DNA of 58,629 nucleotides from NCBI GenBank assembly GCA_029247075.1, contig JAQWLX010000012.1:1-58629 (forward strand). Direction: 5' to 3'. Below, piece by piece: positions 3,522 through 43,091 of this stretch (position 1 is the stretch's first letter; each line of letters opens with the position of its first letter). The DNA comes from Halieaceae bacterium (GTDB lineage: Bacteria > Pseudomonadota > Gammaproteobacteria > Pseudomonadales > Halieaceae). The position numbers and the translations under genes are program-made. The notes beneath the pieces were generated by a model that had not been told where the DNA came from, searched no databases, and worked only from the letters and a program-made list of their open reading frames with translations.

Positions 3522-3548
3522 TAAAGCGACGCGTTGATCGACCGATTT
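3522..3548 (+). promoter_or_regulatory. sigma28-type promoter upstream of fliS
   Basis: TAAAGCGA (3522-3529) - 11 nt - ACCGATTT (3541-3548), 40 nt before the fliS ATG. Confidence 0.5.
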
Positions 3549-5339: not shown

Positions 5340-5355
5340 TGGCATCCTATTTGCT
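5340..5355 (+). promoter_or_regulatory. sigma54 (-24/-12) promoter upstream of the second EBP and fliE operon
   Basis: TGGCAT-CCTAT-TTGCT. GG (5341-42) and GC (5353-54) are 12 nt apart. It lies 44 nt before the ATG at 5399. Confidence 0.8.
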
Positions 5356-11201: not shown

Positions 11202-12528
11202 GTTTTCGACCCAGGTAGATCAATATATTGGAAGGCTCAATCCGACACCTCTGGAACCTTCTGGAAGGCTTTTGCGAGTTGTAGGAATGACGGTCGAAGT
11301 TTCAGGAGTAGCAGCGCCAGTTGGAGCGAAATGTCGCATATCTACAGCATCTAACAATGGTTATATCGAGGCAGAGGTGGTGGGATTTAATAATGACGTT
11401 CTTTTTTTAATGCCGTACGGCTCTATTGAGGGTGTGGCACCAGGCGCGAGCGTAACGGTGGTTAACCGATTCCCAATGGTAAATGTTAGTAGAGACATGC
11501 TAGGCAGAGTAGTGAATGCCCAGGGTGAGCCTATCGATGGGCTCGGTCAAATAAAATCTTCTGAATCTTGCGGGCTATTTGGTTTTCCAATTAATCCTAT
11601 GGAGCGCGGGCCGGTGGAACACGCTCTAGATACTGGGATAAAGGCGATTAATTGTTGTTTGACTCTTGGTCAAGGTCAACGAATCGGGTTGGTGGCGGGT
11701 TCCGGCGTGGGTAAGAGCGTTCTCTTGGCTATGCTGGCAAGAAATACTGCTGCCGATGTCGTGGTTATTGGGCTTGTAGGGGAACGGGGCAGAGAAGTAC
11801 AGGAGTTTGTTAGTACCACCCTAGGCGAAGCGGGACTCAGAAAATCAATTGTAGTTGCTTCACCCACATATGATCCTCCAGTTGCTCGTTTAAAGGCTGC
11901 GCATTTAGCCCATGTTATTGCTGAGTATTTTCGAGATCGTGGAAAAAGAGTTTTGCTATTGTTTGATAGTTTGACGCGAGTTGCGCATGCGCAACGTGAG
12001 ATAGGGCTAGCGGTGGGCGAGCCACCTACAGCAAAAGGCTACCCTCCCTCTGTTTTTGCATTATTGCCGAGCTTGATAGAAAGAGCGGGAGTTGGGGCAC
12101 ATGGACATGGTTCTATTACTGCCATCTATACCTTACTAGCTGAAGGTGATGATAGGGCAGATCCGATAGTTGATATCGCCCGCGCTTCTCTTGACGGACA
12201 AGTTATGCTTTCGAGAGATTTAGCTGATGCAGCTCACTATCCCTCAATCGATCTTAACGGATCCATTTCTCGGATAATGGACAACCTTGTTGATAAGGAA
12301 CAGGTGAATCTAGCTAATCGATTGAGGCGTTATTGGTCTCTTTACAGACAAAACATAGATCTCATACAAGTTGGAGCATATGAGGCAGGTACGAATACCG
12401 AGCTTGATGAAGCTATTGAATTAATTGGAAACATCACTGAATTCCTGCGCCAGGAAAGCGAAGATAATTTTTCTTTTGAAGATTGCTGGAAAGCATTGAA
12501 AGCCTGCATTAGAAGGGATGAACGATGA
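11191..12528 (+). CDS. fliI: flagellum-specific T3SS ATPase FliI
   Basis: The track ORF starts at 11077 inside fliH. The likely start is ATG 11191 (MITEFSTQVDQYI), overlapping the fliH stop. Walker A GSGVGKS, Walker B RVLLLFDSLTR. Confidence 0.95.
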   Translation: MITEFSTQVDQYIGRLNPTPLEPSGRLLRVVGMTVEVSGVAAPVGAKCRISTASNNGYIEAEVVGFNNDVLFLMPYGSIEGVAPGASVTVVNRFPMVNVSRDMLGRVVNAQGEPIDGLGQIKSSESCGLFGFPINPMERGPVEHALDTGIKAINCCLTLGQGQRIGLVAGSGVGKSVLLAMLARNTAADVVVIGLVGERGREVQEFVSTTLGEAGLRKSIVVASPTYDPPVARLKAAHLAHVIAEYFRDRGKRVLLLFDSLTRVAHAQREIGLAVGEPPTAKGYPPSVFALLPSLIERAGVGAHGHGSITAIYTLLAEGDDRADPIVDIARASLDGQVMLSRDLADAAHYPSIDLNGSISRIMDNLVDKEQVNLANRLRRYWSLYRQNIDLIQVGAYEAGTNTELDEAIELIGNITEFLRQESEDNFSFEDCWKALKACIRRDER

Positions 12529-12965: not shown

Positions 12966-12981
12966 TGGCACAGTATTTGCT
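12966..12981 (+). promoter_or_regulatory. sigma54 promoter upstream of fliK
   Basis: TGGCAC-AGTAT-TTGCT, starting immediately after the fliJ stop and 45 nt before the fliK start. Confidence 0.8.
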
Positions 12982-17104: not shown

Positions 17105-17860
17105 ATGAGCGCTTCCAAAATATCGCATAGGGCTTTTTTATTACTGGCAGTTTTTTCTCCCATGCCAATTTCTGCCCAAACAGGTGTACCTTTAATCAAT
17201 GTTGTCCAAGATGCCGCAGGAGGCTCTGAGTACAGCCTGAGTTTAGAGATCCTGGTCTTAATGACGGTGCTTACGTTGTTACCGTCGATCGTTATTATGA
17301 TGACTTCCTTCGTACGTATAATCATTGTTATGTCGTTATTGAGACAGGCATTAGGAACAGCGCAAACTCCTCCAAATCAAGTTCTCATTGGCTTATCACT
17401 TTTTCTGACTTATTTTGTCATGGCGCCGGTTTTGACAAATATATACGAAGAAGCTTTTGATCCCTATGTAAATGAAAGAATTTCCGCACAAGAGGCTATG
17501 GATAAGGCTGCAATTCCCTTACGTGAATTCATGCTTGCCCAGACAAGGGAAGACGATATTCTTATGTTCGCGGAGATAGCGGATCATGATTTGACTGGAG
17601 ATCCAGCTGATATACCGTTTCGTGTACTAGCCCCCTCATTTATGACCTCCGAGCTAAAGACAGCTTTTACAATAGGATTTTTAATATATATTCCATTTGT
17701 GATTATTGATTTGGTGGTCGCTTCAGTTCTTATGTCAATGGGTATGATGATGCTTTCACCTATGATGATTTCAATGCCATTTAAGCTAATGCTTTTTGTT
17801 CTTGCGGACGGTTGGGCATTAATAACACAATCTTTAACCACTAGTTTTGCTGTCACCTAG
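17105..17860 (+). CDS. fliP: flagellar export gate protein FliP
   Basis: 251 aa. Signal peptide, then conserved MTSFVRIIIVMSLLRQALG and PNQVLIGLSLFLTYFVMAPV blocks. Confidence 0.95.
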   Translation: MSASKISHRAFLLLAVFSPMPISAQTGVPLINVVQDAAGGSEYSLSLEILVLMTVLTLLPSIVIMMTSFVRIIIVMSLLRQALGTAQTPPNQVLIGLSLFLTYFVMAPVLTNIYEEAFDPYVNERISAQEAMDKAAIPLREFMLAQTREDDILMFAEIADHDLTGDPADIPFRVLAPSFMTSELKTAFTIGFLIYIPFVIIDLVVASVLMSMGMMMLSPMMISMPFKLMLFVLADGWALITQSLTTSFAVT

Positions 17861-17875
17861 AGCGAGGAGGTCTTT

Positions 17876-18145
17876 TTGAATGTTGGTGATGTAATAACGA
17901 TTGGGCAGGATGCGCTATGGACAGCTGTGCTTATCGCAAGTCCTTTGTTAGGGACTGCTTTGGTTCTGGGCGTTGTAATTGGTGTTCTGCAGGCTGCAAC
18001 TTCCATTCAAGAGATGACGCTAAGCTTTATACCTAAATTAGCTGGAATGGTCTTAGCTTTATCACTTTTTGGAGCATGGCAGATTTCGACAATTATAAGA
18101 TTTTTTGAATACATCGTTGAGTACATTCCTACCATACTTTTGTAA
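17876..18145 (+). CDS. fliQ: flagellar export gate protein FliQ
   Basis: 89 aa, two TM helices (LGVVIGVLQAATSIQEMTLSFIPKL). Confidence 0.93.
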   Translation: MNVGDVITIGQDALWTAVLIASPLLGTALVLGVVIGVLQAATSIQEMTLSFIPKLAGMVLALSLFGAWQISTIIRFFEYIVEYIPTILL

Positions 18146-18912
18146 TGGATTTTTTAGTTTCAGAAATCGTATCGCTGTTCTACACGTTTTTATGGCCACT
18201 TATTCGTTTTTCCGCATTTTTTCTAACCGCTCCTCTGTTCTCTTTGGCGGCTGTTTCCGTGCGGATTCGAATTACCTTAGCGTTTTTGTTGACGTGGGTA
18301 GTCTATCCTTTTTTGGACCTTCCAATAATAGATCCTCTCTCGCCACTTGGAATAAGCGAAGTATTTGTCCAGGCAGCGATTGGAGCCATTGGGGGCATCA
18401 TTTTACAGCTTGTTAATGCTGCATTTGTAGTGGGTGGTCAGTCGATGAGTGCTTCAATGGGGCTGGCTATGGCAAATATGGTTGATCCCAATATGGGTAA
18501 CGTGCCGGTTCTCTCGCAATTTTTATTGATTTGCGGAATTTTAGTTTTCATGATCTTGGGAGGACATCTAATAGTCATTCAAATTATGGCTAATAGTTTT
18601 CAAACGCTTCCTATAGGCAGCCCTTTGTCAATGTTAGATTTGATTCAGGGAGTTCTCTTCTGGTCAGGTAGTATGTTTGTTGGTGCTTTAATGATTGCTT
18701 TGCCTGTTTTGGCTTCTTTGTTGTTTATTAATCTAGGTTTGGGTGTGATAACTAGATCAGCCCCTGCACTGAATATTTTTTCGCTTGGGTTTCCTGCCAT
18801 GATTTTAGGGGGTATGGTTATCATTGTTATATCAATGCCGGGATTTGTTCGCCGAGCAGAGTCACTTTGGTTTATAGCCTTTGACAGAATTAGAGAGACT
18901 TACGGAATATAA
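18145..18912 (+). CDS. fliR: flagellar export gate protein FliR
   Basis: 255 aa, polytopic. TAATG coupling to fliQ. Confidence 0.93.
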   Translation: MDFLVSEIVSLFYTFLWPLIRFSAFFLTAPLFSLAAVSVRIRITLAFLLTWVVYPFLDLPIIDPLSPLGISEVFVQAAIGAIGGIILQLVNAAFVVGGQSMSASMGLAMANMVDPNMGNVPVLSQFLLICGILVFMILGGHLIVIQIMANSFQTLPIGSPLSMLDLIQGVLFWSGSMFVGALMIALPVLASLLFINLGLGVITRSAPALNIFSLGFPAMILGGMVIIVISMPGFVRRAESLWFIAFDRIRETYGI

Positions 18913-18914
18913 TT

Positions 18915-20072
18915 ATGGCTGAAGAGAGTCAACAAGAAGACAAAACAGAAGAACCGACAGCGAAGCGTCTTGAAAAAGCAAGAGAGGAAGGCCAGGCCAT
19001 TCGTTCTCAGGATTTGAATGTTGCGGTCATGGTCATGATGGTTGTAATAACTATGTACGCCTTTGGTGGAGCACTAATAGATTCGTTACTGGAAGTATTC
19101 TCGAGAGGTTTTGTATTCGATAGAAGGTTGGTTTTTTCGGAGCAGTTATTCTCTGGCGTGGTCGGTACAGAGCTTAGAGATGCATTTTGGGTCATTGCAC
19201 CTATACTGGTACTAACTATTATTTTGGCCATTATTCCCTCAGCCACTCTGGGAGGGTTTATTTTTTCCTTCAAAGCTGTGGCACCTAAGCTTTCTAAATT
19301 AAGCCTCATTAATGGATTTAAGAGAATCTTTGGCACCAAAGCGCTCATAGAATTAGCTAAGGCAATTTTAAAATTCCTTCTCATAGGGTCATCGTTGTTT
19401 ATCGTCTATACGATGTATGCAAAAGATTTCATTTATTTGTCTGTGATGGCGATTAAGCCGGCGATTGAAAGTGCCGCCAACATGCTGTCGCTGGGAATGT
19501 TATTTGTCTGTATAAGTCTCATATTGGTAGCGTTAGTCGACGTGCCATACCAGATTGTCTCTTTTAAAAATCGCATGAAAATGACTAAACAGGAGGTCAA
19601 GGATGAACGCAAAGAGATGGAAGGACAGCCGGAGGTGCGAGCTCGTATAAAGCAACGCCAGCGCGATATGGCAATGCAATCAATGCTTGAAGCTTTACCT
19701 ACTGCAGACGTTGTTGTAACTAACCCTGAACATTTTGCAGTAGCACTTGCTTATGATCCTAATGGCAGTGATCCACCGAGAGTCGTAGCAAGGGGAGCAG
19801 ACTTCATGGCTTTACGTATTCGTGATCGCGCTACACAAGAAGGCATTTCGCTTTTTGAAGCTCCACCTTTGGCTAGGGCCCTGTATTTTACCACCGATGT
19901 TGGTAGTTTTATTCCTGAGGCGTTATATCACGCAGTCGCCCAGGTAATAGCTTATGTTTTTTCCATTGGAACATTTAGCGCTTCTGGAGAATATCAACGT
20001 CCCAAACCCAAAGTGCCACCTGAACTGGACTTCGATGAAACAGGTAAATTAAAGGATGAAGTCATTCAATGA
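18915..20072 (+). CDS. flhB: flagellar export switch protein FlhB
   Basis: 385 aa. N-terminal EEPTAKRLEKAREEGQ, four TM helices. The autocleavage region VVVTNPEHFAVALAYD reads NPEH instead of NPTH. Confidence 0.95.
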   Translation: MAEESQQEDKTEEPTAKRLEKAREEGQAIRSQDLNVAVMVMMVVITMYAFGGALIDSLLEVFSRGFVFDRRLVFSEQLFSGVVGTELRDAFWVIAPILVLTIILAIIPSATLGGFIFSFKAVAPKLSKLSLINGFKRIFGTKALIELAKAILKFLLIGSSLFIVYTMYAKDFIYLSVMAIKPAIESAANMLSLGMLFVCISLILVALVDVPYQIVSFKNRMKMTKQEVKDERKEMEGQPEVRARIKQRQRDMAMQSMLEALPTADVVVTNPEHFAVALAYDPNGSDPPRVVARGADFMALRIRDRATQEGISLFEAPPLARALYFTTDVGSFIPEALYHAVAQVIAYVFSIGTFSASGEYQRPKPKVPPELDFDETGKLKDEVIQ

Positions 20073-21565
20073 GCAACTCCGATATAGAAAATAACAAACA
20101 AAAAAAATCCATAGATAGCTGGATGGAAGGTGATATGTTGTTTTTGCGCGAGCAGGACAAGATGCAAATAAGCTCAATTCCAGTGCGTCTATCTCAGGAT
20201 AATCCCTACGTTGTTATATGTGGGCCCAAGGTGGATTTACTAAATTATTATTTTGAATATTTGTACGCGCAATTAAAGGGCAGTGACCAATATGAGCTAG
20301 AAGTATTTTTTTCTGTAACTACAGATGCTCTGCTGGATTTTTACAACAAGCGCCTAGCAGATATTAGCGTAAATGCAGCGAAAAGTGCGACTGATTCCGA
20401 GTTATATAGAAAAATTTTAGTCATCAGTGATTGTACTGGTATGGCTAAAAACGAGTGGGATTTACTGGCTAGGCTGCTGATTGATTTTCCGGGTGCAAAC
20501 TGTGGTGTATTAATAATATGCGAGGAACCTTTCAACCAACAAGTGGAAGCATTTTTTAAACTTTTAGGTTCTCGTTTGACGCGCTGTTATTGTAATTTTC
20601 CAGATACTCGTGAGCTTGTTAGTTTTCTAGATGCATCTTCTGTGACCCCCTATCATTCTCACAATAAGAAAACATTAGCTGCTTTGGGGATAACAGGAGC
20701 AGATCTAGAAGTAGATCACTCAAAAAGTCATTCAGAGGAAAGTGATGCGGATATTTCTCCGGAGGCTTCAGGAGAAAAGAAATTTAATAAGTTTCTATTC
20801 TTTACCTTTGTTCTTGTTTTGGTTGTCGCTTTTGGAGTTGCTTACCTATTAAATCATGATAACGATACTGACTTTGAGGTGGTCGATCAAACTATCGCTA
20901 ATGATGATAATGATTCAATTTTAGCTCAAAAAGATCGAGATCAGTTGACCACCAAAGAAAGTGGCAATCATTTATCGGATGCTGTAATTGAAGAGGAAAT
21001 GGAAGAAATCATTTCGTTCTCGGAGGGAAATATTGCCGTCCAGATGGTTGGTTTGTCTAAGGAAGAGGATGTTGTCGAGTCTCAAATTAAGGAATTAAAC
21101 ACGAATGACCCAATAAATGAAGTTGCATTTGAAGAGCAAGCTGAAACGGTAGAAGAAGATATATCATCTATAACGGTTGATGCAATCTCGTTGTCCGAGG
21201 ACTCACAAGAGGTTGAAGAGGTTAATGAGCAAATTTTGGAAGAGCAAGATGATGATTTATCCAAAGACAAGATTGAGTCTTCGATCGATATTGCAGCCTA
21301 TTACCTGCAGCATGCGGCGTTGAGTTCTGAGTCTGCTGCAAACACAGCCGCAAGAGAAGCCTTTACTAATTTTTCAACCGCATTTTCACTGCCACAGTTT
21401 TCGCAAGCAAAACTCTGGCATGTAGTTTTTTCTGGGCCTTATGCTACGCGTACAGAAGCTATGAATGTTGCTAAAGAAAATGGGGTGACTGCCGATGTTG
21501 TCATAGTAAGAGGAACGTATGTGGCTTCCAGAGTTCCTTCCGAGGTAGAAGATGACGGAAGGTGA
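20069..21565 (+). CDS. bitopic protein: degenerate P-loop-like N-terminal domain, TM helix, acidic linker, C-terminal SPOR-like peptidoglycan-binding domain
   Basis: 498 aa. The ATG overlaps the flhB stop (ATGA). VVICGPKVD sits at the Walker A position and ILVISD at Walker B. TM FLFFTFVLVLVVAFGVAYLL. The C-terminus YYLQHAALSSESAANTAA...LWHVVFSGPYATRTEAMNVAKENG resembles DamX/FtsN SPOR domains. Confidence 0.6.
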   Translation: MSNSDIENNKQKKSIDSWMEGDMLFLREQDKMQISSIPVRLSQDNPYVVICGPKVDLLNYYFEYLYAQLKGSDQYELEVFFSVTTDALLDFYNKRLADISVNAAKSATDSELYRKILVISDCTGMAKNEWDLLARLLIDFPGANCGVLIICEEPFNQQVEAFFKLLGSRLTRCYCNFPDTRELVSFLDASSVTPYHSHNKKTLAALGITGADLEVDHSKSHSEESDADISPEASGEKKFNKFLFFTFVLVLVVAFGVAYLLNHDNDTDFEVVDQTIANDDNDSILAQKDRDQLTTKESGNHLSDAVIEEEMEEIISFSEGNIAVQMVGLSKEEDVVESQIKELNTNDPINEVAFEEQAETVEEDISSITVDAISLSEDSQEVEEVNEQILEEQDDDLSKDKIESSIDIAAYYLQHAALSSESAANTAAREAFTNFSTAFSLPQFSQAKLWHVVFSGPYATRTEAMNVAKENGVTADVVIVRGTYVASRVPSEVEDDGR

Positions 21566-21875
21566 AATCTACCGAAAATCTGGCGAAAATGAAAAAATCG
21601 GTAGTATTTCAGGAAGCCCTATTGAAAAAACACTTCCTCTTGATAACTCAGTTACCCTGGATTATCCCGCAAGTGAAGATAAAGATATTGAGGAAGCTGC
21701 GGAGTCTAAGGCTTTACAAGACATTCCGGATACTAGAGCAAAACTATTAATGCAAGGCAAAGCACGCTTTCCGGTTTCAGAAGATGTGTCAGTCGGCCCC
21801 TTTGCAGAGCGCATAAAGAAATTGCGAAGCACGGTGGCTTCAATAATGGAGAATTTGCGGAGCACTAAGGGATAG
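21552..21875 (+). CDS. small hydrophilic acidic protein of unknown function
   Basis: 107 aa. 14-nt overlap with the preceding gene. No TM helix and no motif I recognise. Confidence 0.5.
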   Translation: MTEGEIYRKSGENEKIGSISGSPIEKTLPLDNSVTLDYPASEDKDIEEAAESKALQDIPDTRAKLLMQGKARFPVSEDVSVGPFAERIKKLRSTVASIMENLRSTKG

Positions 21876-21886
21876 AGGATTTTATT

Positions 21887-22870
21887 TTGGCGGATGAAGA
21901 AGAAAAAATTGTAGAAGCTGATTCTGAAACTGAAGAGACTCTCGATGATCAGGGATCGCAAGTCTCTGAAGCGAGTGAAGGATCTGAAGCGGAAGCCGAA
22001 GAGTCCACAGAAGTAAATGACCAAGATTCCGACCTCAACAATGAAGAAACGAACTCCGCCGAAGATATAACTGAGGTTATAATGACGGGTGCTGAAGTTA
22101 TTAGTCAACTAGAAGGCTTAATACCGACGGCGCTTGATGCGGCTGAGGCATCTACTTCAGCTAGTGAAGCAAGCCTGAGCACCATGAGACGTTTGTCGTT
22201 GACGCAGACTGAACTTGATGGAAGGCTGGAAAGAAATAACCTGCTTTTTGCGCAACAGTCTAACCAAATTAAGCTTATATTAGCTGCCGTGAGCTCGGTA
22301 TTAGCTGTGGCCGTCATGGTTTTCATTTTTATGATAATTCAACTTTCTTCAAGAGTTTCTGAGGTAGATGCTTTGGTCATGGCGGTTACAAAGCGAGTAG
22401 TGAAAATGAATCAAAGTTTGGAGCTATTTGAAGAACTTCAGTTTGATATTCGTATCTTAGCGGAAAAACAAGCTAACGCTACTTTGAAATATGAAGGCCT
22501 TGAAGAAGTAGTAATGGGAGCTTCAAATACCTTGGTAGAGCTTAAGTCAGATCTTCCGGCGGCTACTGCGACCAGTGTTTCTACAGAAGTGAGTGAAGTT
22601 AACAAAGAGATAGAGCAGCTTCAGCAGACTCTCACCACCCAACGCAGCACGGTATCCGATTTGTCTGGGTCGATAAAAAGGCTAACGAATACTGTTGGTG
22701 CTATGCAGGGAAAGATGACAAATCTATATTCTCTAGAAAACCAAGTAGAGGCTTTGGTTACATTAACTAGAGAACGATATCTTGACGTACTAGAGAAGAA
22801 GAATGATGCCGTAGAAGATGAAGTCGAGCTTGAAGAGCCTTCTGATATTGTTTTGTACAAGGCAGATTAG
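21887..22870 (+). CDS. single-pass membrane protein with acidic N-terminus and long coiled-coil C-terminal region, unknown function
   Basis: 327 aa. TTG start 12 nt after the previous stop. D/E/S-rich first ~70 aa. TM LILAAVSSVLAVAVMVFIFMIIQL. Heptad-like remainder. Confidence 0.55.
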   Translation: MADEEEKIVEADSETEETLDDQGSQVSEASEGSEAEAEESTEVNDQDSDLNNEETNSAEDITEVIMTGAEVISQLEGLIPTALDAAEASTSASEASLSTMRRLSLTQTELDGRLERNNLLFAQQSNQIKLILAAVSSVLAVAVMVFIFMIIQLSSRVSEVDALVMAVTKRVVKMNQSLELFEELQFDIRILAEKQANATLKYEGLEEVVMGASNTLVELKSDLPAATATSVSTEVSEVNKEIEQLQQTLTTQRSTVSDLSGSIKRLTNTVGAMQGKMTNLYSLENQVEALVTLTRERYLDVLEKKNDAVEDEVELEEPSDIVLYKAD

Positions 22871-22887
22871 ATTAATAAACATTGTCA

Positions 22888-23475
22888 TTATTTGCCCATA
22901 GCACTAATTAACCCTTGGGAAAAATCTCCGGGGAATGGTAATTTAGCTTGGTCAAAAAGAGCAGCAATAGAATCATCGATGCTCATCCGTAATCGATCCT
23001 GGTCGCTCTTTTCATCCGTATTTGCTAGCTCGTATCCCGAATTGTAAAGCACAGCGCAATGCTCAGAAGGTAGCCATGATTGCACCGCTCCTCGCAGAGT
23101 ATTTATCGAATCTAAATTCCCCGGATTTTTTTTTATGCCACCGCTTTGTGAATCTGAATAACCTGATTGAAGGAGAATTTGTATATGTTTTTTTAGGATA
23201 ATTTCATAACGCTGCCTAACTGTTTCAATATTTTCTGCTTCGATATCAGTGTTTCTGCCCGTCAATGCATCCCATAATTCTTTTCCTTGCAAATCGTCGC
23301 TATTTTCTGAAGGGTTTTTTTTATTTCCTGATGCAGGTTCTATCGAAGATTTATTTTTGCTTTGTAGTATGCTCCTCGTAACCTCTTCGAGCTTACCCAT
23401 ACGGCCAATAATATAAAGTAGTAGTATTATTATTGCCAAGCCAGTAGCCAACATTAGTGTGAAGCTTACTGACAT
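22888..23475 (-). CDS. membrane-anchored protein of unknown function (downstream partner in the fliA operon)
   Basis: The track ORF runs to 23580. The likely start is ATG 23475 (MSVSFTLMLATGLAIIILLLYIIG), sharing TAATG with the upstream stop. 195 aa with an N-terminal TM. Confidence 0.55.
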   Translation of the reverse strand: MSVSFTLMLATGLAIIILLLYIIGRMGKLEEVTRSILQSKNKSSIEPASGNKKNPSENSDDLQGKELWDALTGRNTDIEAENIETVRQRYEIILKKHIQILLQSGYSDSQSGGIKKNPGNLDSINTLRGAVQSWLPSEHCAVLYNSGYELANTDEKSDQDRLRMSIDDSIAALFDQAKLPFPGDFSQGLISAMGK

Positions 23476-23990
23476 TAACTGGCTTTCTCTGCAGTATCTT
23501 CTTCTTGATCTTCCAGACCTAATTCTGTAGCAAGAAAGCGAAGGCATTGTAAACTTTGAGCAACACCTAACTCTTCCCAAATCTCATCCGCAATAGCTTG
23601 AACTTTTTCAATAGCTTTTTCTCCGGAAATTTCCATAGTCTGATAGAGCCCGGCAATTAAGAAGATCTTGTCTGCGGGCTCCTTAGGTAGATAAGCAAAA
23701 AAGTTACCAGTATTAGTCTTTATGACCTTAAATAGCGCTGGTTCGGGTGGTTCAGGTTTTGTTTCTCCTTGTGCGATTGCCTGCAGGCAAAGGTGGTCAT
23801 AAATTTCCGCCTTTTTGGCTCCTTCGATAAAAGTTAGGTCAATGTGTGAACGTGTTCTAAAGGCTATTCTAGACCTTAGCGCTCTATCTACGCGTTTATC
23901 TTCCTTAATTGCGTCGAGAATTTTTTCAAACTCTCCTTTGGCCTGTGCCATGGCCCTTTGGTTGCCTTTTGATCTTGAGAAAAGAGACAT
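23475..23990 (-). CDS. cytoplasmic protein of unknown function immediately downstream of fliA
   Basis: 171 aa, starting 14 nt after the fliA stop. No recognisable motif. Confidence 0.55.
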   Translation of the reverse strand: MSLFSRSKGNQRAMAQAKGEFEKILDAIKEDKRVDRALRSRIAFRTRSHIDLTFIEGAKKAEIYDHLCLQAIAQGETKPEPPEPALFKVIKTNTGNFFAYLPKEPADKIFLIAGLYQTMEISGEKAIEKVQAIADEIWEELGVAQSLQCLRFLATELGLEDQEEDTAEKAS

Positions 23991-28907: not shown

Positions 28908-28923
28908 TGCAAGGGTTGTGCCA
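28908..28923 (-). promoter_or_regulatory. sigma54 promoter for the flhA-flhF-flhG-fliA operon
   Basis: The reverse complement reads TGGCAC-AACCC-TTGCA, ~50 nt upstream of the flhA start. Confidence 0.8.
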
Positions 28924-28964: not shown

Positions 28965-28991
28965 TAAAGAATTTATTGAGAATGTCGATTT
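28965..28991 (+). promoter_or_regulatory. sigma28-type promoter for the flgP-like operon
   Basis: TAAAGAAT (28965-72) - 11 nt - GTCGATTT (28984-91), ~60 nt before ATG 29053. Confidence 0.6.
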
Positions 28992-29052
28992 ACTTGAGTG
29001 TTGGACTAGGTTTAGCCTATAAGTTTTTGTTGTAGTGCGAGGATTACGAGAT

Positions 29053-29565
29053 ATGAAGATAAAAAAGAAAGCTTTATCCGCTGCGTTGCTGCTGTTTCTA
29101 AGCAATATGTTGCTTAGCTCTGCCATTTTTGCAGATCATCGTGCTTCTCACAAAAACGTTCGACCTACTGCCAGTTCGGGTGGTTCGGTTAGAGCTTTGG
29201 TCGAAGACCAATACACTGTGACAGCCACTGGTTATGCAGTAATTGCGGTTCAGCGCCATAGTAATCCTGCGCAGCAGCGTTTGATGGCGATAAGGGCAGG
29301 AAAGATGGATGCCTATCGATCTCTTGCAGCTCAAGTATATGGTCAGCATGTGAATTCGACCACTACCCTTGGCGACTTGATAGTCGGTAGTGATGTTTTC
29401 AGAGCGAGAATCGAGGGCGTGATTTATGGTGCGGAGCTTGTAAGTATTGAAACTGTAGGTGATGATACTTATGCTGTCACACTCAGTCTGAACCCGCGAG
29501 TAGTAAACGATTTGAGAAAATTATACTTAAAATATTCTAACCAATTTGCAAGAAAGGCTTCATAA
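29053..29565 (+). CDS. flgP: LPP20/FlgP-family flagellar basal-disk protein, apparently not lipidated
   Basis: The track ORF starts at GTG 29035. ATG 29053 has SD GAGGA. Signal peptide with no Cys. TATGYAVIAV...QQRLMAIRAGKMDAYRSLAAQVYG...EGVIYGAELV...DDTYAVTLSL fits the LPP20/FlgP pattern. Confidence 0.7.
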   Translation: MKIKKKALSAALLLFLSNMLLSSAIFADHRASHKNVRPTASSGGSVRALVEDQYTVTATGYAVIAVQRHSNPAQQRLMAIRAGKMDAYRSLAAQVYGQHVNSTTTLGDLIVGSDVFRARIEGVIYGAELVSIETVGDDTYAVTLSLNPRVVNDLRKLYLKYSNQFARKAS

Positions 29566-29592
29566 GTCAAAATTCTTGCGCTCGGAAGTGCG

Positions 29593-30750
29593 ATGAGTGA
29601 TCCCAGAGGGTATAAAAATTGGCTCAGGTTAGTGTCCACCCTGATTTTTTTCGTGTTTTTTTTCGGAGGGTACGCCTATGCGGATGATAAATTATCTGCG
29701 GAGGAGAGATTGGAAGCCTTACGTCAGTCCTTACTAGACGAGGCGTTGAGCGGTGAAATAGACATTGTGTCAAGTGCTTATGTAGGCTCAGATGGCCAAA
29801 TGCATGAGTCGGCCTATATTACTGCAAATAAGTCTGTTCGAGGTGTTAGGGTAGTAGGGTACGTGAATCCGGAGCCTTCCAGTTCGCCTGCTCCACCCCG
29901 CCGGCGTTCAAAGGATAACTGTGTCTCAAAACGTTACCGTCCCCAGTTGGTTGTTTCGGCGATTCCCCGTGGCAATCCAAACACTAGAGTGGGTTCGGTT
30001 TACTTAAGTGCTGTGGTATCTGAGACGCGTGAAAAATTACTAGAAAATCTAAGAAATAATTCACAAGTGGTTGTTGTAGAAAGTGATGAGGGTTTGTATG
30101 AAACAGAATATGACGCGATCCTAGCACGAGTCGACCAAGGAGTCGGTTCTTATAAGCTAAATGTGGAAATCGGTTTAAGCACTACTCAAGCCGGGAAAAT
30201 TGACAAAGGGATTTACCAGGCAGGTAAAGCAGCGAATAGCATTTGGCAATATGTTCCGTTCTTTAACGTTTACCGAGGATCTCCGGCAAATATAGCTGGA
30301 GGTATAAACTACAAACTTAAAGTAAACCAGGTAGACCAGCCCAAAATAGTATTTGCTGCAAATGAAGAAATTAGTTTTAGGAGTGAGCCAGAGCCAACTC
30401 GAGCTACGGTTTTGCCGAGTAAGCTTCGAGAAGAAATCAGGGGATCAGTTGGAGATATCCTTGAAGAAGTTTTGGGCGGCTTGCTATGCGAGCCTGAAAG
30501 AATCGTCACACGACGTGCCCAAGACGGAACATACTCGTTGCTTGCTGGACAAGCAGCGGGAGTAACTTCTGGTGATCAGTTTATTTTAGTGAGGACGGCG
30601 ATCTGGGATCGTGACCGACTTGATATTAACGATGTTGCGGAATTGGCGTTAGCGAGAGTGGAGTTTGTCTATAAAAATGAGTCGGCGATTAAAGTGATCG
30701 CCGGACCGAATGCCCCAGATTCCGGAAGTCTCATAGCCATACCATTTTGA
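29593..30750 (+). CDS. secreted protein of unknown function; possible FlgT/FlgO-like outer ring component (context and size only)
   Basis: 385 aa. N-terminal signal/anchor (LVSTLIFFVFFFGGYAYA). Follows the flgP-like gene in the same sigma28 operon. No motif I can name with certainty. Confidence 0.45.
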   Translation: MSDPRGYKNWLRLVSTLIFFVFFFGGYAYADDKLSAEERLEALRQSLLDEALSGEIDIVSSAYVGSDGQMHESAYITANKSVRGVRVVGYVNPEPSSSPAPPRRRSKDNCVSKRYRPQLVVSAIPRGNPNTRVGSVYLSAVVSETREKLLENLRNNSQVVVVESDEGLYETEYDAILARVDQGVGSYKLNVEIGLSTTQAGKIDKGIYQAGKAANSIWQYVPFFNVYRGSPANIAGGINYKLKVNQVDQPKIVFAANEEISFRSEPEPTRATVLPSKLREEIRGSVGDILEEVLGGLLCEPERIVTRRAQDGTYSLLAGQAAGVTSGDQFILVRTAIWDRDRLDINDVAELALARVEFVYKNESAIKVIAGPNAPDSGSLIAIPF

Positions 30751-30760
30751 GGTGATAGAT

Positions 30761-31174
30761 ATGAATTCTTGGAAATATTGTTTTGCGTGCCTTGTCTTCT
30801 TGTTACCGATTAATCTAGCGGCAGGAAACGATTCGGTGGACAGTGCTCTGGCAACTTTGCTGGGTACAGATGTTGCCAATGGGAAGGCAGTTAAAAAGCA
30901 ATCTGGAAGCTATGGGTCTACCTATAACGTCCGTCGCGGAGATACCCTCGACGCAATCATAAGACAAAGTTTTAATACTTCAAAAATCCGAAGACCGATT
31001 ATTCGTCAGGCATTTGTTAAGGCAAATCCAGGTGTATTCCGTCGAGGAAATCCTAATTGGATGTATGCTGGTAAGGTGTTGACCATGCCAGAGGTTAAAG
31101 ATTTTCAGAAAGCTATTTTTGTGGATGGTGCCCCGACTGCTAGCGGCAAACGTGATTGGGTTAGTTATCCTTAA
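30761..31174 (+). CDS. secreted FimV/HubP-type LysM domain protein
   Basis: The track start is GTG 30752. ATG 30761 follows GAGGTG. Signal peptide. YNVRRGDTLDAIIRQ...AFVKANPGVFRRGNPNWMYAGKVLTMP resembles the FimV N-terminal LysM. Confidence 0.65.
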   Translation: MNSWKYCFACLVFLLPINLAAGNDSVDSALATLLGTDVANGKAVKKQSGSYGSTYNVRRGDTLDAIIRQSFNTSKIRRPIIRQAFVKANPGVFRRGNPNWMYAGKVLTMPEVKDFQKAIFVDGAPTASGKRDWVSYP

Positions 31175-31186
31175 AACGAATTTCCA

Positions 31187-32299
31187 ATGACAAGCGGAGT
31201 AGAACAGCTAGGCCTTTCCTCTCGACCTTTGAGTGGCGTGTTAGTCAATCAACCTCCTATACAAATCACGGAAGCAATTGCGAAAGAACTTCAGCTACGA
31301 GATGGTCAAATTGTAAAGGCATTGGTAGAGCATGGCGGTAAACATTTACTGCTTAGTGCAAATGAGAGGAGTTTCAGTCTGCCGGTAGGATCAATATATT
31401 CCGCTGGAGCTACGCTAAGTCTTCGGTATGCCACCAGCATCTATGGCAAGCATTTATTGCCGACTAGTCAGCCTGCGTCCTCGAAAAACGTTTCTTTGAG
31501 CAGAACTCCCACTACTACTGCGTCTCCTTCAGGTTTGGTGCAACTTGCACTTTCATACTTAGGGAAGCTTAATAGTGTGGGCTTGGGGTCGCAGGATCTT
31601 GCATCTATTCTAGGAGTTTCTGGATTTGCTGTATCAGTAGATAAATCGAGAGATAAAGGTGTATCTGAAAAGGTGCGATTGCCGCAGTTTCCCTCAAAAA
31701 GCTCCAGAATCACACCTAGACTAGTGGCCGACGCGCTGCTCCATTCAGGCTTATTTTCAGAGTCGATCTCGACCGATAAGTTGCGAGGCAGGCTGGATAT
31801 AAAACAAACTTTGCTCTGGTTACGAGAAGCGTACTCGCAAGATATCGACCAGATAGTAAAGATTTCAGGGGCAATTGACGCGATTGAATTAGCCCAAATA
31901 GAGAGCTTGATCGCTCAAGAAAGACGTGAGGTGTTGTATCGCTTTGCTTTTCCCTTTCAGGAAGGTAGTAGTGTCCAGGTCGAGATAGAGGGGCGCAACC
32001 AGGGTGGAAACAAAGGAGGTCGTTCTTGGTCAATTGCATTAGATACGGTTGATCCAAGTTTGGGAGATGTTTCGGTAAAAGCCTCCCTCCTTGATAAAGG
32101 TGCTCTAGATATAACGTTCTGGGCTGATAGACCAGGGACAGTGTCGTTGATGAAGAATATGTTGTCCGAGTTAACTTTTGAATTAGAGAGATACCAAATT
32201 ACCGTGACCAACACGAATGTAATAATAGGGAGAAGGGTTAGGGAGAATTCAGCTTCAAACGCTGAAGTACAAGGCTCTTTCCTTGATTTGGAGACATAG
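31187..32299 (+). CDS. second FliK-like protein (C-terminal Flg_hook-type domain)
   Basis: 370 aa. The C-terminus DPSLGDVSVKASLLDKGALDITFWADRPGTVSLMKNMLSELTFELERYQITV follows the LG.V.V...G.l.v.f.a....r..L...L..L...L pattern of FliK C-domains. Confidence 0.6.
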   Translation: MTSGVEQLGLSSRPLSGVLVNQPPIQITEAIAKELQLRDGQIVKALVEHGGKHLLLSANERSFSLPVGSIYSAGATLSLRYATSIYGKHLLPTSQPASSKNVSLSRTPTTTASPSGLVQLALSYLGKLNSVGLGSQDLASILGVSGFAVSVDKSRDKGVSEKVRLPQFPSKSSRITPRLVADALLHSGLFSESISTDKLRGRLDIKQTLLWLREAYSQDIDQIVKISGAIDAIELAQIESLIAQERREVLYRFAFPFQEGSSVQVEIEGRNQGGNKGGRSWSIALDTVDPSLGDVSVKASLLDKGALDITFWADRPGTVSLMKNMLSELTFELERYQITVTNTNVIIGRRVRENSASNAEVQGSFLDLET

Positions 32300-33408: not shown

Positions 33409-33435
33409 TAATCGACAATAGTACCTTAATCTTTA
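33409..33435 (-). promoter_or_regulatory. sigma28-type promoter for flgM-flgN
   Basis: The reverse complement reads TAAAGATT - 11 nt - GTCGATTA, ~45 nt upstream of the flgM start. Confidence 0.6.
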
Positions 33436-34701: not shown

Positions 34702-34717
34702 TGGCACGTTGCTTGCT
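34702..34717 (+). promoter_or_regulatory. sigma54 promoter for the flgB operon
   Basis: TGGCAC-GTTGC-TTGCT, ~70 nt before the flgB ATG. Confidence 0.85.
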
Positions 34718-34785
34718 CTATTCAAGTATGAAATGCCGATAAAAATGTAAATCGGCTATTAACTAAGGAACTTTAGGGGAAAAAA

Positions 34786-36341: not shown

Positions 36342-39290
36342 ATGTCATTTTATACCTCATTAACAGGATTAAACGCAGCCACTACCGAGCTTGCGGTAAC
36401 CTCAAACAACATTGCTAACGCCGGAACCTCCGGTTTTAAACGATCCGATGCTGACTTCGGTGACATTTTCGCAACGTCACCTTTGCAGCGTGCGGCGAGT
36501 GTGATCGGTGCCGGGGTATCGCTTAAATCGGTGTCTCAGGAATTCAGTCAGGGAAACATTGAGTTTTCAGCGAACTCTCTGGACCTGGCGATTACCGGTG
36601 ACGGTTTCTTCGCATTGGAATCTCCAGACGGTACCAAGATATTTACGCGTAACGGTGGTTTTATGCTCAACGAGCAAAACCAGATGGTTAACGCGGCGGG
36701 TCAGGCCTTGATGTCATTGCCGGTTGACTCGACAAATACTGCGGATTTTAGTGCGCCTCTGACTGCGATGACAATTCCAAGACAAACGGTTGCAGAATTT
36801 AGAGCGACTACTAGCGTGGAGTTGGGTCTTAACCTGCCATCTACTAGCGAGCCGATTACAGAAATCTTTAATCCGAATAATCCAGAGACTTACCACAAAA
36901 CAACTTCTTTGACGGTGTATGGAGCTTCAGGTTCGAGCCACCTTGCAACGATTTACTATGTGAAGACCGGAGAAGCCACAGCGGCTGATCCATTCAACAA
37001 ATGGCAGACGCACGTTTACATTGATGATCAAAAGGTGACACCTCGCCTGATTCAGTCCGCTGATACTGCGGGTGATAAATATTACGTTAACAAGTACGGA
37101 GAATTGAAAACTGAGTTGGAATTATTGGCGTTGCAGCGAACCAGTGCAGAAAGTGAAAAATATTTGATTACGACCGGTACGCAGTACAAGAAATATTCTT
37201 ACGATCAATTGTCAACTCCGATCAACTCGCAGCCCGCTGCGGTTGAAATGAAGATACCGGCCACATCGCCTTATACCGATAACTTGAATCTGACAAATAA
37301 CCAGGACGGTGTGGACTTTTCAACTTTTACACGAGCAAATTTGAAAGACATGTTTAATCTAAGCATTGATGGCTCTCCATTAGTATCGATAGGTTTAGAG
37401 CATTTAGCGGGAGATGCGCTTAAGCTTTCAGGTAACCAGATCGCGTTTGAACTCCAGAATGTTTTAAACAGCCGTTTCGGGGATGGAAAACGTTTTGATT
37501 TTGGTGCTGCGGCGACTGATGCTGAAGCCGCGCTAGGGAAAATAACGTTATATCGAGAAGCTCCCGTTTGGACAGGGGCGGCATGGTCAGTCCCGAAAAA
37601 TATCACCTTAGATCTTAGGGCACTTGTCGCGGCAGCGGGCGCAACTTACAACGTTGATGCCAATGGTGAGGTTCCTCCAGAGGAACTTGCCGAGATAATC
37701 ACAACCGCACTTGATGCGAACGCTGCATCTGGTAACAAAGATTTTGAGGACATAGAAGTAATCTATGACTACGAGAATCTGGGTTTCCGGTTTACACAAG
37801 GCGGGACCAAAAAAGATAATATATACGTCGCAAGCACAGCCGGGTCGGGAACTAATTCCTTGTTCGGTGTCAAAGAAATCACTGTTCCGACTGGCGGTGA
37901 TGTTGCAGAAGATAACCCGCCAACTTACGGCACGCTACTGCCTCCGCTCGATAGCAACCAGGCAATCACTTTATTAGGCAACGTCCTTCCAAATGGAACT
38001 GGGGAACGTGCTTTAGCTGACCAACGCTATGGCCTTCAGGTGTCATATGCGGACGGTCAGTTTAATATCACGTCGGGCCAAACCGGTGATACATCCAGTA
38101 TCCAGGTGACAGTAAATAGTACGACTGCTGGAACCCCTCCCGTTACAACTTTGAGCCCGGCTTCACTGTTAGCAACAGATTTGCTAGGGATTAATGCAAA
38201 CGGACATGAAGTTTCTCCGCAGGTCTCGACGATAGCGAACTTACCTACAATACGTGGTCAGGCATCACAGGCTGCGGTAGTTCATGGTGGTCCGATGGGG
38301 GTTGATCCCTCAGCATCTTTCGCGGTGACACCAGCTAATAGAACATTAACCTGTATTGTCGATGGTATTTCTTCCCAGATTACGCTGACAGAAGGTCAGT
38401 ACTCGATCGGAACCTTCACAACGCACTTACAGGAAAAGATTAACCTGATGGCGGACGGTCTTGGACGAAGTGTATCGGGCATTACCGTCGGGTTTGATGA
38501 TGCCACCGAGCAACTAATTGTTACAGGTGGTACAGCTAAGTCAGATTCATTTATCCAGATCGCAGGTTCTTCAGACTGGGGACTTGATAACGTAGAAGCC
38601 GCGTTTGCAAAGGTATCAACCTACATTCAGTTGTATCCAGATCAACAGGGAAGTGCTGATGTTTACGTTGCACAGGACACTGACGGAAATTGGGAAGAGA
38701 CTACCGATAAAGGTGAATTTGATGAACAGGACATTCCTTATTGGACACCGATCTTCTTGGATCGTGGTGAGCTGACCTTTGATACATCGGGTACCTTGGT
38801 ATCACCGATGGGCGGTGCAGAACTTCAAAGTGATGGCATCACCGGAACATCAATTGCGGTCGCGTACGATGGAAGTACTCAGTTTAACAGCCCCTTCGCT
38901 GTATTAAGTCAGAACCAGAATGGTGCGGCTGAAGGAGATTTGGTTGGCGTTAACATCGGCGATAACGGATTGGTGGTTGCCAGTTATTCAAACGGATCCC
39001 AGAAGTCTCTCGGTAAGATCATTATTGCGAACTTTGCCACGCCGAAAGGTCTGCGTCAGATTGGTGATGCGAGCTTCTTCGCGACCTCTGAATCTGGCGA
39101 AGCGGCATACGGAGAACCCGGTGCGGCAGGTTTCGGAACACTGAGAGCCGGTGCACGAGAAAGATCAAACGTGGACTTGACCGGTGAACTGGTTGACCTA
39201 ATCACTGCGCAACGGAACTTCCAAGCTAATGCCAAGGCGATTGAGACGAGTTCTTCGTTGACGCAAACCATCATTAATATCCGCGGATAA
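36342..39290 (+). CDS. flgE: flagellar hook protein FlgE, giant form
   Basis: 982 aa. N-terminus MSFYTSLTGLNAATTELAVTSNNIANAGTSGFKRS. C-terminus SNVDLTGELVDLITAQRNFQANAKAIETSSSLTQTIINI. A ~600-aa central insertion. Confidence 0.93.
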   Translation: MSFYTSLTGLNAATTELAVTSNNIANAGTSGFKRSDADFGDIFATSPLQRAASVIGAGVSLKSVSQEFSQGNIEFSANSLDLAITGDGFFALESPDGTKIFTRNGGFMLNEQNQMVNAAGQALMSLPVDSTNTADFSAPLTAMTIPRQTVAEFRATTSVELGLNLPSTSEPITEIFNPNNPETYHKTTSLTVYGASGSSHLATIYYVKTGEATAADPFNKWQTHVYIDDQKVTPRLIQSADTAGDKYYVNKYGELKTELELLALQRTSAESEKYLITTGTQYKKYSYDQLSTPINSQPAAVEMKIPATSPYTDNLNLTNNQDGVDFSTFTRANLKDMFNLSIDGSPLVSIGLEHLAGDALKLSGNQIAFELQNVLNSRFGDGKRFDFGAAATDAEAALGKITLYREAPVWTGAAWSVPKNITLDLRALVAAAGATYNVDANGEVPPEELAEIITTALDANAASGNKDFEDIEVIYDYENLGFRFTQGGTKKDNIYVASTAGSGTNSLFGVKEITVPTGGDVAEDNPPTYGTLLPPLDSNQAITLLGNVLPNGTGERALADQRYGLQVSYADGQFNITSGQTGDTSSIQVTVNSTTAGTPPVTTLSPASLLATDLLGINANGHEVSPQVSTIANLPTIRGQASQAAVVHGGPMGVDPSASFAVTPANRTLTCIVDGISSQITLTEGQYSIGTFTTHLQEKINLMADGLGRSVSGITVGFDDATEQLIVTGGTAKSDSFIQIAGSSDWGLDNVEAAFAKVSTYIQLYPDQQGSADVYVAQDTDGNWEETTDKGEFDEQDIPYWTPIFLDRGELTFDTSGTLVSPMGGAELQSDGITGTSIAVAYDGSTQFNSPFAVLSQNQNGAAEGDLVGVNIGDNGLVVASYSNGSQKSLGKIIIANFATPKGLRQIGDASFFATSESGEAAYGEPGAAGFGTLRAGARERSNVDLTGELVDLITAQRNFQANAKAIETSSSLTQTIINIRG

Positions 39291-42764: not shown

Positions 42765-43091
42765 ATGGAAATTTCTTCAGATCATTACGATTTTAAAGGA
42801 CTGGGCGAACTTCGGGCGCGAGCCGATAGTCGCTCAGAAGAATCAGCACGCGAGGCCGGAAAGCAGTTTGAAGCTATGTTTTTCAAGATGATGCTTAAGT
42901 CTATGAGAGAAGCTTCCGAGCCCTTGAAGAGTGACTTATTTGATAGCGCGGCGATGGATAATTATACAGAGATGTTTGACGCCCAAGTTTCCCAGGCGAT
43001 GGCGCAAAGAGGTTCTTTGGGTGTCGCTGATTGGCTTGTACAGCATCTTAATACAGTAGGAGCGATCCGCAGTAATGGATCAGATGATTAG
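42765..43091 (+). CDS. flgJ: FlgJ, rod-binding domain only (no peptidoglycan hydrolase domain)
   Basis: 108 aa. AREAGKQFEAMFFKMMLKSMRE...MFDAQVSQAMAQRGSLGVADWLVQHL is the rod-binding domain. The ORF stops at 43091 and flgK begins at 43100. Confidence 0.88.
   Translation: MEISSDHYDFKGLGELRARADSRSEESAREAGKQFEAMFFKMMLKSMREASEPLKSDLFDSAAMDNYTEMFDAQVSQAMAQRGSLGVADWLVQHLNTVGAIRSNGSDD

Follow-up and report, generated by a model that had tools for sequence, protein, structure and literature searches.

A SPOR-domain protein with a degenerate AAA+ domain is encoded behind flhB and probably belongs to a flagellar accessory module in marine Gammaproteobacteria

What do the three genes that follow flhB contribute to the polar flagellar system of a Halieaceae bacterium? 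We addressed this question in a stretch of 58,629 nucleotides (nt) (assembly GCA_029247075.1, contig JAQWLX010000012.1, positions 1 to 58,629 of the forward strand), hereafter called the window. An earlier sequence-only reading of this DNA had singled out the three open reading frames (ORFs), which we name orfA, orfB and orfC, as a candidate undescribed flagellar accessory module that is translationally coupled to flhB. We find that orfA belongs to an undescribed family that is tightly linked to flhB. It is a bitopic protein that joins a degenerate AAA+ domain of a new family to a SPOR domain, and we take it to be a probable accessory of an envelope machine that would bind peptidoglycan. We consider it highly probable that orfA, orfB and orfC form a dedicated flagellar accessory module. 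The genes in question are the following.

18915-20072, plus strand: flhB, the export-gate switch protein (Pfam Bac_export_2, 391.9 bits)
20069-21565, plus strand: orfA, 498 amino acids (aa), a bitopic protein with a pseudo-AAA+ domain, a transmembrane (TM) helix, an acidic linker and a SPOR domain
21552-21875, plus strand: orfB, 107 aa, a small, acidic protein
21887-22870, plus strand: orfC, 327 aa, a bitopic protein with a TTG start

The gene layout agrees with the one described earlier, in which a 498-aa ORF starting in the flhB stop is followed by a 107-aa ORF that overlaps it by 14 nt and then by a 327-aa ORF. The flhB TGA stop and the orfA ATG start share the sequence ATGA, orfB overlaps orfA by the expected 14 nt, and orfC lies 11 nt beyond orfB, with an AGAGGA Shine-Dalgarno sequence ahead of its TTG. 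As had also been noted, flhA is on the opposite strand; it is encoded there together with flhF, flhG and fliA, convergent to orfA-orfC. The window otherwise contains a near-complete polar flagellar regulon, comprising flaG, fliS, two sigma-54 activators, fliE-fliR, flgA-flgL and fliD. All three ORFs are genuine genes, because homologues exist for each of them and the differences between the window and the locus L001 are in excess at third codon positions (positions 1/2/3: orfA, 108/68/210; orfB, 22/23/43; orfC, 44/22/122). By the same comparison, orfB is clearly the least constrained of the three.

A scan of metagenomes returned 283 relatives of orfA, and the locus counts that follow are taken from the best 80 of these 283; a scan of a genome collection with very specific patterns returned one locus. 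We observed flhB immediately upstream of orfA and on the same strand in 70/70 metagenomic loci with room for it, and this linkage holds for homologues of only ~20% identity. Nine further sampled homologues also follow flhB (weakest E=4e-7); every distant homologue with a readable contig was directly 3' of flhB, namely P0064 (SAR92/Porticoccaceae), P0067, P0071, P0103, P0180, P0116, P0145 and P0207 (E=4e-7). Homologues of orfA are linked to flagellar loci elsewhere. The flhB-orfA interval measures between -1 and 139 nt (median 58), so that the proposed translational coupling holds for the window and for some clades, but not across the family. Downstream, a homologue of orfC is present in all 50 loci with room for it, at a distance of 288-1110 nt, and an orfB-sized slot between orfA and orfC is retained in 50/50 loci. 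In L007, three small ORFs take up this slot (11789-12328) and flhA (17416-19523) is broken into two; these splits are probably assembly frameshifts in a long-read-derived contig and not biology.

Close homologues of orfA (68-93% identity) come from marine metagenomes and from single-cell genomes of an uncultured gammaproteobacterium. Named members of the family are annotated as "hypothetical" or "SPOR domain-containing" proteins and come from Porticoccaceae, SAR92 and Cellvibrionales metagenome-assembled genomes. The probable flagellar module is lineage-specific, being found in Porticoccaceae/SAR92-type marine Gammaproteobacteria, a narrow and mostly uncultured lineage. Our survey of the literature, which was incomplete in coverage, found no report of a SPOR-domain flagellar protein.

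Two genes on the opposite strand may extend this neighborhood, although their membership in the module is uncertain.

22888-23475, minus strand: orfD, 195 aa counted from an ATG, with an N-terminal TM helix; last gene of the flhA-flhF-flhG-fliA-orfE-orfD operon
23475-23990, minus strand: orfE, 171 aa, a soluble protein encoded directly downstream of fliA

The convergent orfD is present in 27 of the 35 loci with room for it, and homologues of both orfD and orfE occur in L001, L004, L007, L010 and L093. Neither protein matched a Pfam or NCBIfam family. The position of the two genes and the single TM helix of orfD are reminiscent of FipA-like partners of FlhF; no match to DUF2802 was obtained.

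The genomic context bears directly on a first alternative, namely that orfA is a housekeeping SPOR protein of division or wall metabolism, analogous to DamX or DedD, that is adjacent to flhB without having a flagellar role. Its SPOR domain does align with that of DamX, and some source annotations label fragments of family members as DedD, DamX or RodZ. In addition, the sediment metagenome locus L009 is the sole exception to the linkage described above: an intact 619-aa orfA homologue lies there among the his operon, mutY, yggX and a porin gene, with no flagellar operon in front of it. At positions 7815-8005 of L009, directly before this homologue, we found what is left of flhB, its last ~60 codons with a frameshift, and the flagellar operon has apparently been lost from this locus while orfA was spared. 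The L009 gene had been considered as a non-flagellar paralogue, and this was rejected on finding the flhB 3' remnant upstream. A housekeeping role is also at odds with the same-strand, often overlapping flhB in 70/70 loci down to ~20% identity, with the co-conservation of orfC, orfD and orfE as neighbors, with a flagellar sigma-factor motif embedded in orfA (see below), and with an N-terminal domain that is unrelated to that of DamX. We regard this alternative as very improbable.

The domain architecture of orfA is close to certain, and consists of the following segments.

20069-20776, plus strand: cytoplasmic N-domain (aa 1-236), with an AAA+-like alpha/beta core and a helical lid
20786-20860, plus strand: TM helix (~aa 240-264; Kyte-Doolittle peak 2.76)
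20861-21283, plus strand: periplasmic acidic linker (~aa 265-405), of low conservation and with a net charge of ~-40
21284-21523, plus strand: SPOR domain (~aa 406-485; Pfam PF05036)

The Pfam SPOR model covers residues 410-469 of orfA with 33.3 bits, above its curated cut-off of 21 (E=6e-8), and a C-terminal Pfam SPOR match was found in 40 of 92 distant family members (E<0.01). When a profile of these 92 members was aligned with the SPOR domain of Escherichia coli DamX using hhalign, the probability was 95% (E=3e-8), and the alignment was confined to the SPOR region (profile positions 386-479, DamX residues 333-427). DamX residues Q351, S354 and W385 are required for septal localization; two of these three are kept in the alignment, with Q414 of orfA corresponding to Q351 and W450 to W385. 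These are the Gln of strand 1 and the aromatic residue of strand 3 on the beta-sheet face that binds glycan. A phmmer search of the orfA SPOR segment against PDB sequences returned no match. The only hydrophobic segment of orfA is flanked by KKFNK on its N-terminal side and by an acidic stretch on its C-terminal side, from which we infer a bitopic, N-in, C-out topology as in DamX and FtsN. These results bear out the earlier assignment of a single TM helix, an acidic linker and a C-terminal SPOR domain of the DamX/FtsN type. Judged from its sequence, the C-terminus of orfA is a DamX-like SPOR domain on an acidic spacer of ~140 residues, and it is predicted to bind denuded glycans.

In its overall plan, orfA resembles DamX, FtsN and DedD, which are likewise N-in bitopic proteins whose SPOR domain sits at the C-terminus, behind a periplasmic spacer that is long and of low complexity. 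It differs from DamX in carrying a cytoplasmic AAA+-like domain of ~230 residues that is unrelated to the DamX N-terminus, and in its location: orfA is locked to flhB and is not found by divisome genes, whereas E. coli damX lies in an aroK-aroB-damX-dam neighborhood. Membership of orfA in the DamX family was rejected, as only the SPOR region aligns and the neighborhood is that of flhB and orfC.

The N-domain of orfA could not be classified by sequence. Searches against Pfam, NCBIfam and PDB sequences gave no match, either as a single sequence or as a close-homologue profile, and the AAA and P-loop models of Pfam matched neither the window orfA nor any of 9 close homologues or 92 distant family members. 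An exhaustive profile search with the N-domain recovered 218 relatives, 82 of them below 1e-10; these are mostly 450-660 aa in length, with the homology to the N-domain at their N-terminus. An AlphaFold2 model of full-length orfA built on a 9-sequence alignment was unusable (predicted local distance difference test, pLDDT, 38), with the linker appearing disordered in this shallow-alignment model. We re-modelled the N-domain with 149 diverse sequences from the exhaustive search, and this alignment gave a confident model (pLDDT 88, predicted template modelling score 0.80) with a beta-alpha-beta core and a helical lid, the arrangement of AAA+ ATPases with their Rossmann-like core (beta5-1-4-3-2 type). 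Compared with the PDB using Foldseek, all 50 matches listed were AAA+ modules, 45 of them at E<=1e-3 (best E=5e-5), with template modelling scores of ~0.4-0.47 and 12-15% identity for the best structural matches. They include clamp-loader subunits, RFC/Rad24, ORC, NSF/Sec18, dynein AAA domains and ClpA. Among the top matches were 1jr3_D, 3glh_A, 8giy_A and 1jqj, which we take to be the clamp-loader delta subunit (HolA). The delta subunit, although AAA+-like in fold, binds no ATP, and its role is solely that of a binding module. Structurally, this subunit and other degenerate AAA+ modules come closest to the orfA N-domain. They share only the fold with it (score ~0.45, 12-15% identity), and nothing ties orfA to DNA replication in function or descent.

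The model also allowed us to place the two motifs on which the sequence-only reading had based its proposal of a pseudo-ATPase. Both are where a nucleotide-binding site would have them, with VVICGPKVD on the beta1/alpha1 loop and ILVISD on beta3. At the site of the Walker A motif (GxxxxGK[ST]) the window protein has CGPKVD and the family consensus is S-D-N-E-A; GK[ST] occurs at the P-loop position in 0/149 family members. Of the Walker B motif (hhhhDE at the end of beta3), the aspartate (D121) is kept in 130/149, followed by alanine or cysteine and never by the catalytic glutamate. Because none of the 149 members keeps the Walker A lysine, the modelled N-domain is an AAA+ fold without a P-loop and a pseudo-ATPase throughout the family, and it is most likely a docking module. 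The two similarities proposed for orfA were both recovered, that to SPOR domains by profile and that to AAA+ proteins by fold.

The combination of an AAA+ fold with a peptidoglycan-binding domain raises a second alternative, in which orfA acts like ExeA/GspA: it would bind peptidoglycan around the rod and recruit or organize its lysis, so that the rod and P-ring could cross the sacculus, offsetting a FlgJ that lacks the muramidase domain. Like orfA, ExeA/GspA is bitopic: a single TM helix in the inner membrane connects an AAA+-fold domain in the cytoplasm to a domain for peptidoglycan binding in the periplasm, and with ExeB/GspB it has a bitopic partner encoded alongside and serves a large envelope-spanning machine (PMC9239104). 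The layout of orfA and its bitopic partner parallels GspA/GspB in these respects, and orfA is co-expressed with early export-gate genes. The gene for FlgJ in the window also fits.

42765-43091: FlgJ, 108 aa, rod-binding domain alone (positions 3-90 of the 294-position FlgJ model)

The absence of a glucosaminidase domain from FlgJ had been noted before and is upheld by this match, which covers only the rod-binding third of the model; likewise, no lytic-enzyme domain was found in the scanned ORFs of the window, as the sequence-only reading had stated. Against an ExeA-like role, hhalign of the 149-sequence N-domain profile with E. coli K-12 GspA gave no match to its ATPase domain, which is of the AAA_22 type (probability 0.6%, with a single sequence as the template), and there is no relation to AAA Pfam models. 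ExeA function requires its nucleotide-binding site, whereas the ATPase of orfA is dead, its Walker A motif having been lost. Furthermore, the peptidoglycan-binding domain of orfA is SPOR and not PF01471, its context is flagellar instead of that of the type II secretion system, orfB and orfC, in contrast to the ExeB/GspB pair system, show no similarity to any curated family, and no gsp genes were found in the window. SPOR domains read the peptide-free glycans made by amidases (PMC6895207), which are not known products of the enzymes that make holes for flagella, and neither an amidase nor a lytic transglycosylase was found in the cluster. Membership of orfA in the ExeA/GspA family was ruled out by the null hhalign result with its single-sequence GspA template and by zero AAA Pfam matches. 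Of the ExeA/AAA-type layout that had been suggested for orfA, the AAA+ part therefore stands, as a fold detected by Foldseek, while the ExeA relationship does not, and the likeness is one of architecture. We consider an ExeA-like function unlikely.

The timing of expression is relevant to the role of each gene, and is suggested by the promoter-like motifs of the window.

12966-12980, plus strand: sigma-54 consensus (TGGCACAGTATTTGC), a perfect TGGCAC-N5-TTGC, between fliJ and fliK
28909-28923, minus strand: sigma-54 site, perfect consensus, directly upstream of flhA
34702-34716, plus strand: sigma-54 site, perfect consensus, directly upstream of flgB
21472-21499, plus strand: candidate FliA (sigma-28) promoter TAAAG-N14-GCCGATGT, within the 3' end of orfA; the orfB ATG follows 56 nt downstream
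314-338, 3522-3546 and 28965-28989, plus strand: intergenic sigma-28-type motifs ahead of flaG, fliS and the LPP20 gene
33411-33435 and 34751-34775, minus strand: intergenic sigma-28-type motifs ahead of flgM and flgA

The sigma-54 promoter proposed at 12966 has a perfect consensus and is one of three in the window, each of which lies in an intergenic region that precedes a flagellar operon (fliK, flhA and flgB). It likely starts a transcript that runs through fliK-fliLMNOPQR-flhB-orfA and possibly on through orfB and orfC. A further site with one mismatch is found at 5340, ahead of the second sigma-54 activator gene. Encoded on the same strand as flhB, with an overlap or a short gap between the two genes, orfA is produced along with the export gate. 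With its conserved operon position, a sigma-54 site upstream and a sigma-28-type motif within, orfA belongs with the flagellar set.

A different picture emerged for orfB and orfC. A sigma-28 scan that allowed 3 mismatches gave noise and was replaced by a search for exact TAAAG-N16-CGAT, which we take to be the sigma-28 consensus TAAAG-N14-GCCGATAA, with shuffle controls. The window contains 6 copies against 0.71 expected, and no shuffle gave six. Five are the intergenic copies listed above, all of which share the 14-nt spacer and define a local FliA consensus; the sixth (21472-21496) is in the SPOR-coding end of orfA. Across the 80 loci (613 kb, both strands) there are 53 copies, of which 52 lie on the coding strand, either at the orfA 3' position or in the 3' part of orfB, ~75 nt before orfC, and at least one site is present in 39 of the 56 loci with an orfC match. 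From the placement of these motifs, orfC is very probably a late, FliA-dependent gene as well, and the same very probably applies to orfB in the clade of the window. Because a conserved FliA-type motif precedes them, orfB and orfC are probably not expressed from the sigma-54 promoter alone. This runs counter to the claim that all three proteins are made only with the export gate from the sigma-54 promoter. The related claim that no promoter or terminator separates the genes is not confirmed: a generic scan of the flhB-orfC interval found no notable sigma-70-like promoter or terminator, but the sigma-28-type motif at 21472-21496 falls within it.

A late-class promoter motif ahead of orfC, or of orfB and orfC, is what would be expected under a third alternative, in which the module serves the mature motor as a periplasmic scaffold or stator-associated anchor, comparable to the MotX/MotY T-ring, FliL or PflA/PflB, with the coiled coil of orfC around the basal body and SPOR tying it to the wall. 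Two further observations agree with such a role: in L008 and L094 the orfC homologue adjoins motA/motB, and the LPP20 (FlgP-like) and Sel1 (weakly MotX-like) proteins in the window suggest an elaborated motor. A scaffold of this kind does not explain why orfA is coupled to the early gene flhB, why L093 has orfA without orfC, or why a stator anchor should carry a cytoplasmic pseudo-AAA+ domain, for which it has no obvious need; moreover, the ligands of SPOR domains are concentrated at septa and are not uniformly available. On this evidence the scaffold or stator role appears improbable.

The sequence-only reading had described orfB and orfC as proteins with no recognisable motifs, and our searches returned the same answer, with no curated-family match in Pfam or NCBIfam and only coiled-coil noise when the PDB was included. 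Profile matches of orfC below or near threshold in the PDB and Pfam (cavin, reovirus sigma-1, GCN4 chimeras, DUF4763 and DUF7310) were dismissed as compositional coiled coil. orfC has 39 close homologues and is kept in distant flhB-linked loci. A conserved LDAAEA helix precedes its single TM segment (~aa 128-152, nt 22268-22342), which is followed by a strongly conserved juxtamembrane stretch, QLSSRVSxVDAxLVAVxKRVVxMN, with the coiled coil beyond; a VEALVTLxRERYLDxL segment and a short [ILV]x[YF]P-like C-terminal tail are also kept. The N-terminal region spans ~125 residues, the first ~100 of them very acidic, and has no signal peptide, from which a cytoplasmic N-terminal region and a periplasmic coiled coil are predicted. 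orfB lacks a TM helix and a signal peptide, diverges rapidly and has 13 homologues; phmmer found no match between it and the small ORFs that occupy the same slot in distant loci. The only feature that recurs in those loci is a C-terminal helix motif, F.ERI.K[LV][KR], and because this motif overlaps the sigma-28-like DNA motif, it may reflect a constraint at the level of DNA rather than protein.

Our preferred reading is that the module tethers the nascent basal body to amidase-processed peptidoglycan of the septum or new pole. This is a tentative proposal, made by analogy, to which we assign a probability of roughly 0.45. The SPOR domain of orfA would bind the denuded (amidase-processed) glycan strands that mark the septum and the newborn pole, and its pseudo-AAA+ domain would grip the cytoplasmic face of the nascent basal body via the C-terminal domain of FlhB (FlhB-C) or FlhA (FlhA-C), or via FlhF/FlhG. 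Early flagellar assembly (export gate and MS ring) would thereby be fixed by orfA to septal or new-pole peptidoglycan, the rod might be installed during wall synthesis, and FlgJ could on this view do without its muramidase domain. orfC, topped up late via FliA, would extend or stabilize the tether in the periplasm, and orfB would be a small cytoplasmic partner.

The elements of this proposal have precedents. SPOR domains target septal denuded glycans, which are made by amidases (PMC6895207), and a SPOR protein of Sinorhizobium meliloti, RgsS, acts with AmiC in selecting the new pole (PMC7822825). Pseudomonas aeruginosa pre-installs its type IVa pilus machine at future division sites via the peptidoglycan-binding AMIN domains of PilQ, without a dedicated hydrolase (PMC5285504). 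In that case too a domain that binds septal peptidoglycan brings a machine to the future pole and a dedicated hydrolase becomes unnecessary, which is the logic we propose for a flagellum with a hydrolase-less FlgJ. The parallel would be one of mechanism only. PilQ carries AMIN and not SPOR domains, is part of the secretin and not a separate bitopic adaptor, and serves a pilus and not a flagellum. HubP/FimV, which acts in polar flagellar placement with FlhF/FlhG (PMC12918733), is like orfA a single-pass protein with a peptidoglycan-binding periplasmic domain and a cytoplasmic interaction region. Its topology is reversed, however, with an N-terminal periplasmic LysM domain and an acidic cytoplasmic region; it has LysM in place of SPOR, lacks an AAA+-like domain and is encoded outside the flagellar operon. 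Because SPOR reads the amidase-made glycans of septa and new poles, polar placement or anchoring is at least as strongly indicated as wall crossing, and the context is that of a polar system with FlhF/FlhG and a FlgJ reduced to its rod-binding domain.

Several points weigh against the tether. The SPOR assignment is drawn from profile matches, and orfA has A417 in place of DamX S354, a serine that is important in DamX. The docking partner of the N-domain is proposed by analogy, and the topology of orfC is predicted from its sequence features. L093 has orfA without orfB or orfC, and because orfA stands alone there the trio is not indivisible and need not act as one unit. Finally, the neighboring motA/motB genes in L008 and L094 fit a stator or scaffold role, and the late FliA-type promoter fits it equally well.

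A stronger version of the tether is that the flagellum is pre-installed at the septum. The SPOR protein, made together with the export gate, would read the amidase-denuded glycans of the septum and, with the wall still open, nucleate the basal body at the pole as it forms. We consider this doubtful. If it were true, the FlgJ muramidase would be dispensable, and a pseudo-AAA+ adaptor family without described relatives would carry a peptidoglycan-encoded positional cue that acts in parallel with FlhF/FlhG or upstream of them.

Other features of the regulon were recorded during this analysis. Divergent from flhA, a conserved sub-cluster at 29035-32299 (plus strand) encodes an LPP20/FlgP-like lipoprotein (176 aa), two proteins without a family assignment (385 aa and 140 aa) and a 370-aa protein whose Flg_hook domain is of the FliK type, so that the window has two FliK-like genes. 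Matches of the 140-aa protein to LysM and FimV_core are weak and stay below threshold. In L008, L010 and L011 the same LPP20 sub-cluster ends with an ORF of 97-127 aa that resembles the C-terminal domain of FlhB, and in L010 a clear LysM protein (189 aa) follows immediately after orfC. The gene at 2633-3487 (plus strand), which has a CLC channel gene on one side and fliS on the other, encodes a 284-aa Sel1-repeat protein. This protein resembles Vibrio MotX and the spirochaete collar protein FlcA weakly, below threshold, and may be a T-ring-like motor accessory. Neither motA/motB nor che genes are present in the window. FlgE, the hook protein (982 aa; 36342-39290, plus strand), and FlgK, a hook-associated protein (993 aa; 43100-46081, plus strand), are unusually long, which implies that they carry large inserted domains. 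Two ion-channel genes flank or interrupt the flagellar regulon, encoding a CLC chloride channel with a CBS domain (942-2633, plus strand) and a voltage-gated-type Ion_trans channel (49106-50026, minus strand), and a 957-aa protein with a Receptor L-domain match is encoded at 51015-53888.

Beyond a few model species, it is only partly understood by what means a polar flagellum locates the pole and its rod passes the wall without a FlgJ hydrolase, and the module described here may bear on both questions. It connects a domain that reads septal peptide-free glycans with the flagellar export gate in the abundant marine SAR92/Porticoccaceae, and SPOR domains would here be linked to flagella for the first time. 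Should the tether or pre-installation reading be true, a wall-encoded cue would be added to the FlhF/FlhG/HubP picture, and the principle of pre-installation known from type IV pili would extend to flagella. Regardless of the mechanism, three and possibly five proteins of the locus define new families linked to the flagellum, and the degenerate AAA+ domain defines another; the locus also contributes a putative lineage-specific FliA promoter motif that lies within coding sequence.

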